From NCBI GenBank assembly GCA_050043265.1, contig JBHJIR010000005.1, positions 61,202 to 125,201 on the forward strand: a stretch of 64,000 bases of DNA, written 5' to 3'. The DNA comes from Kiloniellaceae bacterium (GTDB lineage: Bacteria > Pseudomonadota > Alphaproteobacteria > Kiloniellales > Kiloniellaceae). Below the pieces are notes generated by a model that saw nothing but the letters and a program-made list of their open reading frames with translations, had not been told where the DNA came from and did no database searches. Both the position numbers and the translations under genes were made by a program. Of the stretch, positions 1,540-48,633 are shown piece by piece; positions within the stretch are counted from its first letter, which is position 1, and each line of letters begins with the position of its first letter.

Positions 1540-4500
1540 TCAGGCGGCAAGCTTCACCAACTGGTCGAGCATCTGGCGCACGCCCGTCACCCGCGCCGAC
1601 TCGCTGTCCCACGCGCGGCGGTAGACAAGGGTGTGGTCGGGCCGCAGCTTCACCTCCCCCGCCTGTTTCTGGATAAAGGCGATAAGGCCGGCCGGATTGG
1701 CGAAGCTGTTGTTGCGGAAGGCGACGGTCGCCCCCTTCGGTCCGGCATCCAGCCGTTCGACCCCCGCCTCGCGGCACAACCGCTTGATGGTCATGATCTG
1801 CAGTAGGTTGGCGACCTCCGCCGGCAATGGTCCAAAACGGTCGACCAGTTCGGCGGCGAAACCGTCGATCTCGGCACGGTCGACCAAAGTCGACAGCCTA
1901 CGGTAGAGTCCGAGGCGCAAATTCAAGTCTGAAACGTAAGTGTCCGGGATCAGCACCGGCATGCCGATGTTGATCTGCGGCGTGAAGCCATCGGCCGCCG
2001 CCTCGGCGGCCTCGCCTCCGGCCCTGGCTGTCGCCACCGCCTCCTCCAGCATCTGCTGGTACAGCTCGATGCCGACCTCGCGGATGTGACCGGACTGCTC
2101 CTCGCCCAGCAGGTTGCCGGCGCCGCGGATGTCGAGGTCGTGGCTGGCCAGCTGGAAACCGGCGCCCAGGGTGTCGAGGGTCTGCATCACGTGCAGGCGC
2201 TTCTCGGCAGCGGTGCTGAGGATGCGCCCCGGCGGCAGGGTAAAGTAGGCGTAGCCGCGCTGCTTGGAACGGCCGATACGGCCGCGCAGCTGATAGAGCT
2301 GGGCCAGGCCGAACATATCGGCGCGGTGCAGGATCATGGTGTTGGCGGTGGGGATGTCGAGACCGGATTCGACGATGTTGGTCGACAGCAGGATGTCGTA
2401 CTTGCGGTCGTAGAAATCGGTCATCACCTCTTCCAGCTGGGTCGGCGCCAGCTGGCCGTGCGCCACCGCCACCTTCACCTCCGGCACCAGCGTGGCGAGA
2501 CGCTCCTTCACCTCGGCGATGTCCGTCAGCCGCGGGCAGACGTAGAAGGTCTGGCCGCCGCGGTAATGCTCGCGCAGGATCGCCTCGCGCACGATCACCG
2601 GGTCGTAGGGCAGCACGAAGGTGCGCACCGCCAGGCGGGCGACCGGCGGCGTGGCGATCAGGCTCATCTCCTTCACGCCGGACATGGCGAGCTGCAGGGT
2701 GCGCGGAATCGGCGTCGCCGTCAGGGTCAGCACGTGGACGTCTTCGCGCAGCGCCTTCAGGCGCTCCTTCTGCTTCACGCCGAAGTGCTGTTCCTCGTCG
2801 ACGATCAGCAGGCCGAGGTCCTTGAAGGCGATCGACTTGCTGAGGATCGCGTGGGTGCCGACGACGATCTCGACACGGCCCTTGGCCAGGTCCTCGCGGT
2901 TCTGCGCCGCCTCCTTGGCACCGACCAGACGCGACAGCTGCACGATGCGCACCGGCAGGCCGTTGAAGCGTTCCTTGAAGGTGCGGAAATGCTGGCGGGC
3001 GAGCAGCGTGGTCGGCACCACCACGGCGACCTGCTTGCCCGACATCACCGCCAGGAAGGCGGCACGCAAGGCCACCTCGGTCTTGCCGAAGCCGACGTCG
3101 CCGCAGACCAGACGATCCATCGGCCGCCCCGCGGAAAGGTCCCCCAGGGTCTCCTCGATGGCGCGCAGCTGGTCGTCCGTTTCCGCAAAGGGAAAGCGCG
3201 CGCAGAATTCGTCGTAGAGGCCGTCGGGCCGTTCCAGGGCTTCGGCGGTTTTCAGGGCACGGGCGGCAGCCACCTTGATGAGGGCGTCGGCCATCTCCTT
3301 GATGCGCTCCTTCACCCTGGCCTTGCGCGCCTGCCAGTTCACGCCGCCCAGCTTGTCCAGCTCGACGCCTTCGTTCTCCGACCCGAAGCGCGACAGCACC
3401 TCGATGTTCTCGACAGGGACATACAGCTTGTCGCCGCCCTGATAGATCACTTTCAGGTAGTCGTGCGCCGCGCCGGTGGCGTCCAGCGTCTCCAGCCCCT
3501 CGTAGCGCCCGACGCCGTGGTCGACGTGGACCACCAGGTCCTTTTCCTGCAGGTCGGAAATCTCGGTGAGGAAATTCTCGGCGCGGCGGCGGCGCTGCGC
3601 GGTGCGGGCGATGCGCTCCCCCAGGATGTCCTGCTCGGTCAGGAACAGCGTGTCGGCGAAGCGGAAGCCCTTCTCGATCCCCAGCGCCGCGAGCCCGACC
3701 TTGTCCTTGGCCAGACCGTCGACACCCGCCCAACCGTCCAGCGGCACGCCATCAATGCCGGCGTGCTCCTGCAGCAGGTGTGCCAGGCGGTCGAGCGCGC
3801 CGGCGCTGAAGGCGGTCAGCACGACCCGCTGGCCGCCCTTCAGCACCCGGCCGATATCGGCACCGACCGCATCGTAGATCTGGCCCTGGGTGCCGCCGCT
3901 CTGCAGGGCGGCGCGCTGTTCGGCGTAATCGAGGCCCGGACGCCCGCCGGCATCGCGCACCGTCGCGCCTTCGGGCGCCGCGAAGGGGGTGAACTGGCCG
4001 CCGGGGCGCGCGGCGAGGCCGCGCTCCCATTCCGCCGCGTCGAGATAGAGGTCGGTCGGCTCCAGGGCCTTGTAGACCCAGCCGCCGGTTTCGCCGCCGC
4101 CTTCCAGCGCCTTGCGCGCCTGGTAGAAGTCCAGAATCGTCTCCAGCCGCGAATCGCGCGCTTCGACCGCCTGGTAGTCCAGGGTGACGCCGGCATCGGG
4201 CAGGTAGTCCAGCAGAGTGACCAGACGCTTGTGATAGAGCGGCAGCCAGTGCTCCATGCCCGGATGGGCGCGCGCCGCGCTGACCGCCTCATACAGCGGA
4301 TCGTCGCGCACCACGCCGAAGCGCTCGCGGTAGCGGGTGCGGAAGCGCTCGACGGCCTCCGGATCCAGGATCACCTCGCTGACCGGCTTCAGGGCCAGGC
4401 GTTCGACGGTGCCGGTGGTGCGCTGGGTCAGCGGATCGAACAGCCGCAGGCTCTCCAGATCGTCGCCGAAAAAGTCGAGGCGCACGGGCTGTTCCTGGCC

Positions 4501-45864: not shown

Positions 45865-46953
45865 TCAGACCGCCGGGCGGCCGCTCGGGCTGGGGCCCAC
45901 CGTTCCCTCGGCCCGCTGGTCGACCAGGTAGTCGGTTGCCACCGCCCCGATCCACATGCAGGTCAGCGCTAGCCAGGCCGTCATGGCGAAGGTCGACGCC
46001 CCGGTGACGCCGGCGCCGATGGCGCAGCCACCGGCCAGCATGGCGCCGAACCCCATCATCGCCGCGCCACTGAGGTAGCGCCGCATGGACTTGGCCCCTT
46101 CGAAGCCCTCCAGCTTCCATTCCCGCGCCAGCAGCGCCGCCAGGGCAGCGCCCAGGAAGACGCCGGGGATCAGCCCGATATCGAAATCCGCGACGTCCTG
46201 GGCGGTCATAAAGAACATGAGAGTATCGGCGGAAGGACCTGAGAAAGTTAAACTTTCCACCGAGATAAGATCGAAGGACTGGACCGAGATCATAGCGGTC
46301 AGCAGCCAGCCGGCCCCCACTGCGAAACCGACGCCAGAGCCGAAGATCAGCACCCACCAGCCGATGCCGGCCCGCCGCGAGACCACCAGGGCGACGATGG
46401 CCAGGATGGCGCCGATGGCAACCCCGGCATAGGGGCCGAGGCCGAAGAAGCTGGTCAGTTCGATGTTCGCCCCGCCGCTGGTTGTCCACAGGCCCGCCAG
46501 GGCATTGCGCGCCGGCGCCAGCACGCCGTGCAGGGTCATCTGGGCCGTCACCGCGAAGACCAGGCCGGACAGCAGGGCACGCAGGTTGCCGCAGGCCGCC
46601 AGCACCAGCAGGCGCCCGGAGCAGCCGCGGGTCAGCACCATGCCGGCGCCGAACAGCAGGCCGCCCAGGATCGCCCCGGAGATCGATCCCGGCGAGGCCA
46701 GCCAGCGCGCCTGTTCCAGCGGCACCAGGCCGCTCAGCGTGAAGGCCTGGGTCCAGAACACGGCAGTGGAAAAGCACAGCAGCCAGACCGACATGCGCGT
46801 GCCGAGCTGGCCGCGGGCGAACTCGACGGTGGCGGCGCGCAGGCAGAAGCGGCTGCGCTGTGAGGAAACCCCAAAGATACCGCCGACGACGAGGCCGATC
46901 AGGGCAGCCGCCCCGGTATCGCCGGTGATTTCCAGAATGTCGCTGATATCCAT
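45865..46953 (-). CDS. YeeE/YedE family sulfur-compound transporter
   Basis: RSRFCLRAA, GMVLTRGCSGR, AMLAGGCAIGAG Cys-containing loops. Start at ATG 46953. Confidence 0.9.
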   Translation of the reverse strand: MDISDILEITGDTGAAALIGLVVGGIFGVSSQRSRFCLRAATVEFARGQLGTRMSVWLLCFSTAVFWTQAFTLSGLVPLEQARWLASPGSISGAILGGLLFGAGMVLTRGCSGRLLVLAACGNLRALLSGLVFAVTAQMTLHGVLAPARNALAGLWTTSGGANIELTSFFGLGPYAGVAIGAILAIVALVVSRRAGIGWWVLIFGSGVGFAVGAGWLLTAMISVQSFDLISVESLTFSGPSADTLMFFMTAQDVADFDIGLIPGVFLGAALAALLAREWKLEGFEGAKSMRRYLSGAAMMGFGAMLAGGCAIGAGVTGASTFAMTAWLALTCMWIGAVATDYLVDQRAEGTVGPSPSGRPAV

Positions 46954-47104
46954 GACGCGAAGCCCGGCGTGGTCGGAATGGCGGATTCCTAGACCATTTT
47001 GGTAAAGGTCGCCTTGATGCAGGTCATGCGAACACCATGCCCTTGCATTCAACCCTGACGTCAATCGGGCTCCCTATCGGTCGGCCGATTGCCGGCCCGC
47101 CGCC

Positions 47105-47983
47105 TCAGGGCGCCGGCGGGACCGTGTCCGGGGGCATGGTGCCGTTGTCGTCGCCTTCATCATCGTGGTCGTCGACGGAGAAGTCGTCGTCCTCCGCTTC
47201 CCGTTCGGCGCGCTTCTTCTCGACCATCTTCGCCATGAGGATGGAGATCTCATAGAGGATGATGATCGGCACCGCGAGGCTGAGCTGGCTCAACGGATCG
47301 GGCGGCGTGAAGATCGCCGCCACGACGAAGACGGCGCCGATGGCGTACTTGCGCTTGGCGGCCATGCCCTTGGAAGTCGCGAGGCCGACGCGGGCCAGCA
47401 GCGTCATCACCACCGGCAGCTGGAAACACAGGCCGAAGGCGAAGATGAGCTGCATGAGCAGCGAGAGGTACTCGTTGACCTTCGGCTCCAGCTCGATCGG
47501 CAGGGAGTTTTCGGTGCCGGGCACCTGAAAGCCGACGAAGAACGTCGCCGCGAAGGGGAAGATAATGTAGTAGACCAGCGCCCCGCCCAGGAAGAACAGG
47601 AAGGGCGTGGCGGCCAGGAACGGCGCCAAGGCCGACTTTTCGTGCTTGTAGAGCCCGGGGGCCACGAACAGCCAGAACTGGGTCAGGAAGATCGGGAAGC
47701 AGATGAAGCCGGCGGCGAAGAAGGCCACCTTCACGTAGGTAAAGAAGACCTCGGTCAGCGCGGTAAAGATCATCCGCTGATGCTGGCCGGTGATGCCGTG
47801 CTCCAGCATCACGTCGGCCAGCGGCTGGGCCAGGTACTGGAAGATAGGCTGGGCGAAGTAGAAGCAGACCAGGAAGGTCACCAGCAGCGCCACCACCGAA
47901 TACAGCAGGCGCTGGCGCAGCTCGATCAGGTGATCCAGCAGCGGCATCTTCTTGTCTTCGGGGGTATCGGTCACGGTGGTCAT
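47105..47983 (-). CDS. tatC: Sec-independent translocase TatC
   Basis: LLDHLIELRQRL, QFWLFVAPGLYKHEK, FGLCFQLP, AIFTPPDPLSQ. Confidence 0.98.
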   Translation of the reverse strand: MTTVTDTPEDKKMPLLDHLIELRQRLLYSVVALLVTFLVCFYFAQPIFQYLAQPLADVMLEHGITGQHQRMIFTALTEVFFTYVKVAFFAAGFICFPIFLTQFWLFVAPGLYKHEKSALAPFLAATPFLFFLGGALVYYIIFPFAATFFVGFQVPGTENSLPIELEPKVNEYLSLLMQLIFAFGLCFQLPVVMTLLARVGLATSKGMAAKRKYAIGAVFVVAAIFTPPDPLSQLSLAVPIIILYEISILMAKMVEKKRAEREAEDDDFSVDDHDDEGDDNGTMPPDTVPPAP

Positions 47984-48633
47984 TCGAACCTGTCAGAAGA
48001 GGGGCCGCCAAGGGCCGGGGCAGCCTTGCGGCCGCCGATACCGGCCAGCAGTGCTAGTCCCGCCGGCAGCAGGAAAACAAACCCGGAGAAGAACATCATC
48101 CGCATCAGCTGCGACAGGTACTCGGCGACTATCGGCTCCAGATGGATCGGGAGGGCATTCTGGGACACCGCTGGTCCCTGAAGGGCAAGATAGAATGCCA
48201 GGATCTTGGGGAAGAAAACCGTATACGCCAGGGCCCCGCCGAGAAAGAAAGACAGCACCAGGGCGGCCGCGCCATAGAGAGCGGCACGTCGCTCGTAACG
48301 ACCACTCCGAACGGCCTCGGCGCGCCAGAGATCGGCCAGGATCAGTGGGCAGCAGAGAAACAGGGCGGAGAAGAAGGAAACGTTTACGTAGGTGAAGAAC
48401 ACCCCCGTCAGGGCCGTGAAGACCATGCGCTGATGCTGACCCGAGGTGCCATGCTCCAGCATCGCGTCGGCCAGCGGCTGGGCCAAGTACTGAAAGATCG
48501 GCTGAGCGAAGAAGAAGCAGACGGCAAAGACCACTACGAACGCCAGCGCCCAGAACAGCAGACGACGCCCCAGCGTCATGGGCCGCCTCACCTTTCCCTC
48601 AGACAATCCGTTCACCGCAGCCATGGCCGTCAT
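47980..48633 (-). CDS. Truncated, diverged TatC paralog (TM1-TM4 only)
   Basis: AQPIFQYLAQPLADAMLEHG..GQHQRM.FTALT nearly identical to the adjacent TatC; LEP...EYLS.LM; no TPPD/TM5-6 region; ATGA overlaps with both tatB and tatC. Confidence 0.85.
   Translation of the reverse strand: MTAMAAVNGLSEGKVRRPMTLGRRLLFWALAFVVVFAVCFFFAQPIFQYLAQPLADAMLEHGTSGQHQRMVFTALTGVFFTYVNVSFFSALFLCCPLILADLWRAEAVRSGRYERRAALYGAAALVLSFFLGGALAYTVFFPKILAFYLALQGPAVSQNALPIHLEPIVAEYLSQLMRMMFFSGFVFLLPAGLALLAGIGGRKAAPALGGPSSDRFE

Follow-up and report, generated by a model that had tools for sequence, protein, structure and literature searches.

A half-length TatC paralogue encoded between tatB and tatC in Pelagibius may be an accessory part of the Tat export machine

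The tat locus contains a half-length tatC paralogue

TatC is the receptor and organising centre of the twin-arginine (Tat) translocase. The stretch of DNA that we analysed, hereafter the window, consists of 64,000 nucleotides of a Kiloniellaceae genome (GenBank assembly GCA_050043265.1, contig JBHJIR010000005.1, positions 61,202 to 125,201) and contains four successive open reading frames (ORFs) on the minus strand, which correspond to tatA, tatB, an ORF of 217 amino acids (aa), and tatC (Table 1). The third of these ORFs matches only the part of TatC that contains transmembrane helices 1-4 (TMH1-4), and it is referred to here, together with its orthologues, by the working name PAR. G000 is the window's own genome, and the other G and L codes designate the further genomes and loci that were compared. 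Judging by the names that its relatives' proteins bear, this genome belongs to Pelagibius, in the family Rhodovibrionaceae. The ORF shares an ATGA tetranucleotide with tatB (48630-48633) and another with tatC (47980-47983), as reported in an initial annotation of this DNA, with which both coordinates and sequence agree. Overlaps of this kind at both ends are an arrangement typical of translational coupling. The end of tatB, which reads ..AAGCAGCCCGCATGA, is conserved among relatives.

When compared with the Pfam TatC family (PF00902), PAR scores 102.1 bits (E 4.9e-29; gathering cut-off 25.1) over profile positions 6-169 of 208 only, and it is 50% identical to the TatC of the window across 202 aa. 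Because its GC content by codon position (0.64/0.45/0.77) is of the coding type and intact orthologues are present in other genomes, PAR is not a chance ORF. It is a real gene maintained by selection.

Table 1. Coordinates of the tat genes and of the parts of PAR in the window
Feature	Coordinates	Strand	Basis or remark
tatA, 82 aa	49166..49414	-	ORF; Pfam TatA_B_E, E 1.1e-12
tatB, 161 aa	48630..49115	-	TGA stop inside the ATGA that starts PAR
PAR, 217 aa, TMH1-4, predicted N-in/C-in	47980..48633	-	Pfam TatC; AlphaFold2 model; orthologues
tatC, 292 aa, full length, every recognition motif present	47105..47983	-	Pfam TatC, 233 bits, profile positions 1-208; alignment to E. coli TatC
PAR N-terminal cytoplasmic tail, residues 1-20	48574..48633	-	Four-residue deletion in the HLIE segment (E. 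coli H12-E15); acidic to basic
PAR TMH1, residues 21-41, best conserved part among paralogues	48511..48573	-	Comparison of the proportion of non-synonymous differences (pN)
20-codon stretch AQPIFQYLAQPLADAMLEHG, PAR residues 43-62	48448-48507	-	Old tatC-to-PAR gene-conversion tract
End of PAR TMH2 and first cytoplasmic loop, DLWRAEAVRSGRYERRAA, residues 101-118, arginine-rich	48280..48333	-	HMMER alignment to E. coli TatC chains 9dzz and 9r91
PAR TMH4, residues 169-200	48034..48129	-	FQLP polar residue (E. coli E170 position) replaced by L188
PAR C-terminal tail, ..GGPSSDRFE and stop	47980..48033	-	Duplication junction; codons aligned to TatC ..KRKY/A
TTCTGACAGGTTCGAATGA, conserved at the nucleotide level up to and including the tatC start	47980..47998	-	Comparison of G000, L035, and L037

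PAR keeps the first four helices of TatC and lacks most of the recognition residues

In the structure of E. coli TatBC with a signal peptide, the residues that recognise the signal are H12, E15, F94, Y100, and E103 (PMC13323110). When PAR is aligned to E. coli TatC, the equivalents of H12 and E15 fall within a deletion, the HLIELR of TatC being replaced by PMT--LGRR with a net loss of four residues. In the first cytoplasmic loop (C1), where the QFWLFVAPGLYKHE of TatC is replaced by DLWRAEAVRSGRYE, the equivalents of F94, L99, and Y100 are A105, S110, and G111. The initial annotation held that the signal-binding parts have been replaced as a whole, which is right for HLxELR, for the first loop, and for the F94 equivalent; the E103 equivalent is kept, as E114 within RYERR. 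The loop is nearly identical in L035 and different in L042, L037, and G001. The ratio of basic to acidic residues (K+R/D+E) in the N-terminal tail is 4/1 in PAR vs 3/5 in TatC. Conservation of the N terminus (MTAMAAVNG..) in L035 and L042 supports the ATGA as the start of PAR.

Further losses concern the C-terminal half. The polar residue of TMH4, a Gln in Pelagibius TatC at the position of E. coli E170, is lost in the window's PAR, where FQLP has become FLLP, just as had been proposed from the window alone; the proposal does not extend to L037, the only orthologue that retains the Gln. PAR ends at the position of Y195/V196 in E. coli TatC, the start of TMH5, so that TMH5-6 are absent from the ORF, as the initial annotation had also stated, and with them the polar-cluster site of TMH5 (M205, T208, and Q215) that binds the TatB/TatA helix. 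On the other hand, PAR resembles canonical TatC (PF00902; E. coli, Aquifex aeolicus 4B4A/4HTS, and E. coli TatBC 9DZZ) in TMH1-4, both periplasmic loops, predicted fold and topology, and operon. It keeps the equivalent of P48 (in QP) and the GGxLxY and FP motifs. It departs from canonical TatC by having four helices instead of six without the TMH5/6 polar-cluster site for TatB/TatA, by the loss of the equivalents of H12, E15, F94, and Y100 and, in most copies, of the TMH4 polar residue, by an N-terminal tail and C1 loop that are basic instead of acidic or neutral, and by an evolution about 2.5-6 times faster. We infer from these losses that PAR is unable to act as a receptor for twin-arginine signals.

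An AlphaFold2 model built from a 73-sequence alignment, in which most sequences are TatC so that the model leans on TatC, has four long transmembrane helices and a helix in the first periplasmic loop (P1), with a mean predicted local distance difference test score (pLDDT) of 79.5 and a predicted template modelling score (pTM) of 0.74. It replaced an earlier, poor model (pLDDT 57) from a 5-sequence alignment of the paralogues. At E<=0.001, the only fold matches of the model in the PDB are TatC structures (9e02, 4b4a, 9e01, 4hts, 9dzz, and 9e07), with template modelling scores of 0.58-0.65. The positive-inside charge pattern is kept and even reinforced. PAR is therefore predicted to be a four-helix membrane protein with both termini in the cytoplasm (N-in/C-in), in which TMH1-4 adopt the TatC fold.

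PAR orthologues are found in six Pelagibius lineages

The initial annotation called for a search of related genomes for a second TatC match between tatB and tatC, and such matches exist. Whole-genome searches showed that two further species of Pelagibius, G001 and G006, each have one immediately upstream of tatC, a 210-aa ORF with ATGA overlaps on both sides. Protein searches added the near-identical strain L040/L041, L035 (211 aa, 64% identity), and L037 (206 aa), and a profile search of 1.84 billion representative proteins added L042 (210 aa). Altogether, PAR orthologues are present in six Pelagibius lineages as intact ORFs of 206-217 aa, in independent assemblies and samples. Gene order is scpA/B-ABC-tatA-tatB-PAR-tatC in every carrier, and PAR overlaps both neighbours by ATGA in G000, L040/L041, L035, L037, G001, and G006. 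In L042, the overlap with tatC has been lost and the two genes are separated by 5 nt. In a further contig of the L042 lineage (L043, positions 2274-3137, coverage 2.75), tatC is split into ORFs of 41 and 229 aa, probably through an assembly error.

In addition to the genome of the window, five of 301 evenly sampled alphaproteobacterial genomes contain two TatC matches (G146, G177, G295, G297, and G343). Those in G295, G297, and G343 are split genes. In G146 and G177 there is a second full-length TatC on another contig (G146:C103:3564-4178 and G177:C14:7094-7753), matching profile positions 1-206 or 1-208. Other hits of the profile search, of ~200 aa, are not PAR-like, being ordinary TatC fragments or frameshifted copies (P0089, P0096, P0100, P0114, P0119, P0129, P0134, P0135, and P0146, as well as P0179, P0184, P0186, P0190, P0192, P0197, P0209, and P0215). 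All of these have an APGLY-type loop motif and, except for P0186 and P0209, which are cut at the N terminus, the HLxELR motif. In full-text literature searches for truncated or duplicated tatC, a gene such as PAR was not described.

PAR evolves under purifying selection

The ratio of non-synonymous to synonymous divergence (dN/dS), estimated by the Nei-Gojobori method on few pairs, is 0.25-0.26 for PAR between G000 and L035 (dS 0.84-0.87; Fisher P vs neutrality 6e-14) and 0.23-0.24 between G001 and G006 (dS 0.26-0.28; P 4e-8). These values are far below 1 (P <1e-7). The gene is neither confined to one assembly nor frameshifted in relatives, and dN/dS is not near 1, so that none of the sequence-based outcomes that the initial annotation had named as fatal to its proposal has materialised. 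A suspected frameshift in the tail of L042 PAR is really a stop three codons early, and there is no frameshift in any PAR copy. As a control, the same statistic was computed for the neighbouring genes in the same genome pairs. The dS of PAR is in line with that of tatB, tatA, and scpB; tatC and serS have lower dS and very high GC content at third codon positions (GC3). Between G000 and L035, dN/dS of PAR is comparable with that of tatB (0.27) and below that of scpB (0.36), and between G001 and G006 PAR is the least constrained gene of the neighbourhood.

Constraint is uneven along the protein, as a breakdown of pN by region shows. Among PAR orthologues, TMH1 has a pN of 0.09-0.22, vs 0.05-0.23 for TMH1 of TatC in the same genome pairs, and in some lineages the periplasmic cap is also constrained to the level of TatC. 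By contrast with this slow TMH1, rates in PAR are 5-10 times those of TatC in the first cytoplasmic loop, TMH2, TMH4, and the tail. Between G000 and L035, the new C1 loop, which no longer resembles that of TatC, is nearly invariant (pN 0.07 vs 0.56 for the corresponding proportion of synonymous differences, pS).

Conservation at the nucleotide level is found at the very end of the gene. The stretch that leads up to and includes the tatC start is identical in G000 and L035, and in L037 it differs by one base (C for A just before the ATG), with an overall dS among these paralogues of 0.8-1.5. It is probably a re-initiation or Shine-Dalgarno-like region for tatC. At a much shorter timescale, the window strain and L040/L041 differ by four single-nucleotide polymorphisms (SNPs) in the 2310 nt from tatA to tatC, three in PAR (48226, 48142, and 48131) and one in tatC (47337).

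PAR originated in an old partial duplication of tatC

All PARs stop at the same aligned position of TatC (..KRKY/A) and have an SSDRF tail in common. At this point, tatC reads AAG TAC GCC ATC (tatC ..AAGTACGCCATC) and the end of tatB reads ..CGC ATG A (..CGCATGA), with microhomology between them, and the L037 copy of PAR still ends in TTC GCA TGA (TTCGCATGA). The shared end point, the microhomology, and the ending of the L037 copy together form a signature of microhomology-mediated tandem duplication. These sequences indicate that PAR arose by such a partial duplication of tatC, which began at the start codon and reached into the first codons of TMH5.

Phylogenetic analysis indicates that the duplication occurred once within Pelagibius, at about the time of the radiation of the genus. 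PARs form one clade (support 99.9/100), and its division into two groups parallels that of Pelagibius TatC into two clades. The approximately unbiased (AU) test rejected a topology in which Pelagibius acquired PAR by two independent duplications (p=0.021), and also a position of the PAR clade outside the whole genus (p=0.012). In the best tree, PAR is attached to clade-A TatC, which requires that PAR was lost several times and perhaps also replaced laterally in places; lateral transfer between species, or noise due to conversion, may have contributed. PAR and tatC are separated by a dS of 0.75-2.0, no smaller than the value for the two TatC clades (0.6), which implies that the duplication is old. 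Whichever 30-codon window is taken, the synonymous divergence of PAR from tatC amounts to 0.4-0.6 per site, which rules out a recent duplication or a recent gene conversion as the whole explanation.

Short tracts have nevertheless been exchanged. In the 20 codons of PAR that encode AQPIFQYLAQPLADxMLEHG, there are five synonymous differences (GCT/GCC, CCG/CCT, TTT/TTC, TTG/CTG, and CAT/CAC) and one non-synonymous difference (GCG/GTG) from tatC, exactly as counted in the initial annotation, which took them as a sign of purifying selection. Although purifying selection on PAR is borne out (dN/dS 0.23-0.26), the stretch itself is lineage-specific and owes much to old gene conversion. Indeed, it is TatC-like in the window PAR only, the two other clade-A PARs reading AEPLFRFL(V/M)QPIA... 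In the opposite direction, codons 64-69 of the window tatC (47777-47794) encode GQHQRM (GGC CAG CAT CAG CGG ATG), whereas tatC orthologues have EHQRRL (GAG CAC CAG CGG CGC CTG) and QxQRM is a feature of PAR. The CAT codon is unusual for a gene with such high GC3, and GQHQRM looks like a short PAR-to-tatC gene conversion. The TatC-like tract in PAR and the PAR-like tract in tatC thus point to exchange of short tracts both ways, which is old because synonymous divergence in the tract is ~0.4 per site. The likeness of PAR to TatC in TMH1, P1, and TMH2 is therefore partly homogenisation and not purely purifying selection.

A second half-TatC gene in another alphaproteobacterial lineage

The profile search also uncovered P0165, a 199-aa half-TatC found on two metagenome contigs (L045 and L046) of a Hyphomicrobiales-like lineage, the closest named TatC relatives of which are of the Stappiaceae and Rhodobiaceae type; the L045 lineage is known from contigs <2 kb only. 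Genes are arranged as tatA-tatB-ATGA-P0165-ATGA-tatC. A deletion of 10 residues has taken LDHLIELRSR out of P0165, which ends after TMH4 and retains the equivalents of F94, Y100, and E103. In spite of its long branch, P0165 is placed in the tree beside the TatC from its own lineage (93/97), away from the PARs of Pelagibius. Its dS to that TatC is 1.05, with a dN/dS of 0.29. Taken together, the layout, the deletion, and the place in the tree argue that both the architecture and the N-terminal deletion arose twice, and every copy of either origin lacks the N-terminal HLIELR segment (E. coli H12/E15) and TMH5-6. Close relatives of the L045 lineage are without a half-TatC gene. As for the two contigs (L045 440-742 compared with L046 27-317), their sequences match completely (100%) across tatB, the half-TatC gene, and the beginning of tatC, and there are 28 differing sites in tatA and 13 sites and a 12-nt gap in the tatA-tatB spacer, a pattern that points to recombination or chimeric assembly.

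Possible roles of PAR

In the (TatBC)3 complex, each TatB helix is sandwiched between two TatCs, next to TMH5 of one and TMH1 of the other, the amphipathic helix of TatB packs on the N terminus of TMH1, and the three TatCs pack together on the periplasmic side (PMC13323110). Since TMH1 and, in some lineages, the cap are constrained in PAR to the level of TatC, and these are the surfaces that touch a neighbouring TatB or TatC in the complex, docking appears to be the most likely mechanism. The reading that we favour, tentatively and somewhat short of calling it probable, is that PAR is a selected, signal-blind accessory derivative of TatC whose docking on TatBC adjusts the assembly or valency of that complex. 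PAR would dock on TatBC or take a protomer-like place beside it; with a basic, recognition-dead cytoplasmic face and no TatB site of its own, it would bind no twin-arginine signal; and, once docked, it would tune assembly, stability, or the number of active binding sites, which would make it useful under some conditions and dispensable. A bolder possibility, to which we give rather little credence, is that half-TatC is a recurrently evolved fourth Tat component, a signal-blind TMH1-4 module within or capping (TatBC)3. In such a complex, TMH1 would hold the neighbouring TatB helix and the periplasmic cap would pack on TatC, generating asymmetric receptors with fewer active signal-binding sites or altered recruitment of TatA, and the two origins with the same deletions would reflect convergent evolution towards that function.

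Several findings weigh against a role for PAR in the translocase. Of the 18 other Pelagibius species, 15 have no PAR, with tatB and tatC either overlapping by ATGA or lying a few bases apart; nor is PAR present in other genera of the family or in any other of the 301 sampled genomes. G012, one of the species without PAR, has a TatC almost identical to that of the PAR-bearing G006. In most Pelagibius species, PAR has been cleanly lost or was never gained. Given this patchy presence, any function must be optional or dispensable, making PAR an optional accessory and not a core fourth subunit, which would be present wherever the Tat system is; PAR is not. The proposal in the initial annotation of a fourth subunit rather than a decaying copy thus survives in its second half, as the orthologues are intact and dN/dS is low, and fails in its first as far as a core subunit is concerned. 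PAR is also the fastest-evolving protein of the neighbourhood in three comparisons (G001-G006, G001-L037, and G000-L042) and second to scpB in G000-L035. In every carrier its GC3 (0.68-0.83) is lower than that of tatC (0.85-0.95), and in most comparisons it is below that of the neighbouring genes. Outside TMH1, its loops are not conserved across sublineages. The L042 copy has lost the LP motif and the ATGA overlap, and its dN is nearing the dS of its neighbours. Of the three SNPs in PAR between near-identical strains, one is synonymous and two are non-synonymous (H164Q and I168K), with the window PAR bearing the derived, less TatC-like residue at both sites. Finally, in E. coli, truncation of TatC at S185, E187, or L189 has a dominant-negative effect only if the protein is fused to TatB (PMC5102672), and because such truncations are silent unless fused, a simple dominant-negative role is argued against.

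Many of these findings would be expected if PAR were instead an entrenched, detoxified duplicate, the main rival to our reading, which we consider unlikely on balance. With translation of tatC coupled through PAR, nonsense and frameshift mutations would be polar on the essential receptor and be removed; loss of the recognition segment would be favoured because a signal-binding half-TatC would trap substrates; and the remaining constraint would only keep a harmless protein that inserts well. The sole escape would be a clean recombinational deletion, which would often have happened. This explanation fits the ATGA overlaps or 5-nt gap of all copies, the nucleotide sequence kept in the 17-19 nt that precede the tatC start despite a dS >1 among paralogues, and the frequency with which the gene is cleanly absent and tatB-ATGA-tatC restored, including in a species that is sister to a carrier. 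It is likewise compatible with the rapid evolution and low GC3 of PAR, its unconserved loops, and the silence of truncated E. coli TatC on its own (PMC5102672), and it accounts for the HLIELR deletion in both independent families. It sits less easily with dN/dS values of 0.23-0.26 that are far from neutral and in G000-L035 as low as those of tatB and scpB, with a constraint focused at TatC level on TMH1 instead of being spread over all helices, and with a new C1 loop that hardly varies between G000 and L035. Strong sequence divergence of PAR from TatC (dN 0.43-0.70), new arginine-rich loops, and the disappearance of recognition and docking parts could also be read as signs of a neofunctionalised small membrane protein that works outside Tat transport, for example as a lipid-facing or envelope-stress factor, and has kept only the TatC scaffold and the operon position. 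This seems improbable to us, since the gene is always inside tatABC with coupling overlaps, in two independent origins, with no other conserved partner gene alongside PAR, and since its best-kept part is the TatB-contacting TMH1. The least probable reading of all treats PAR as a pseudogene in decay, a partial duplicate of recent date, or a product of misassembly. The patchy distribution would suit it, as would the clustering in PAR of three of the four SNPs between near-identical strains, two of them non-synonymous, and the early stop and lost LP motif of the L042 copy. Decay or artefact is nonetheless essentially excluded by the intact ORFs in six lineages from independent assemblies and samples, an age reflected in a dS to tatC of 0.75-2.0, dN/dS significantly <1, and the lack of frameshifts in any copy.

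Comparison with known Tat components

To our knowledge, the first structures of TatBC complexes date only from 2025-2026, and they reveal a trimer held through TMH1, TMH5, and the periplasmic cap. Additional TatC proteins occur elsewhere in prokaryotes. In Bacillus subtilis, TatCd/TatCy include a second full-length, six-helix TatC receptor with its own TatA, encoded elsewhere in the genome, and in haloarchaea TatCt is a 14-helix tandem fusion of two complete TatC domains. PAR shares with the B. subtilis proteins that it is an extra member of the TatC family, but it is a half-protein wedged between tatB and tatC. With TatCt it shares an origin in tandem tatC duplication, but it is a truncated, separate ORF and not part of one fused polypeptide. 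Close in design are the laboratory truncations of E. coli TatC at S185, E187, and L189, which have almost the same cut point as PAR, after TMH4 in the second cytoplasmic loop (Cleon et al. 2015, PMC5102672). Those truncations keep the signal-binding residues, whereas PAR is a separate, natural, and selected ORF from which the binding segment has been deleted. Finally, TatE and other accessory TatA paralogues resemble PAR in being dispensable and paralogous to a core subunit of the Tat system, with a possible place in the receptor complex; TatE derives from TatA and its function has been shown by experiment, whereas PAR derives from TatC (PMC5777986 for TatE).

PAR, in which the TMH1-4 half is kept and the signal-binding segment is deleted, amounts to a natural dissection of TatC. 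Should PAR indeed be incorporated into the complex, it would count as the first accessory subunit derived from TatC and a natural tool for finding out how many active sites a receptor needs and what the TMH1 and cap contacts do alone. Should it be a relic locked in by coupling, it would illustrate cleanly that the architecture of an operon can both preserve a partial duplicate and reshape it, on the timescale of species. Half-TatC genes have a narrow taxonomic range, with one marine genus and one metagenomic lineage as the carriers. Because a similar gene arose independently in that second alphaproteobacterial lineage, the half-TatC gene may be an undescribed accessory part of the machine that exports folded proteins.

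Downstream of the tat genes, the loci differ. In G001, G006, and the L116 lineage, serS directly follows tatC, the Sulf_transp gene (PF04143) not being at this position. In the window, this gene for a membrane protein lies between tatC and serS on the minus strand (45865-47064), and likewise in L035, L037, and L040.

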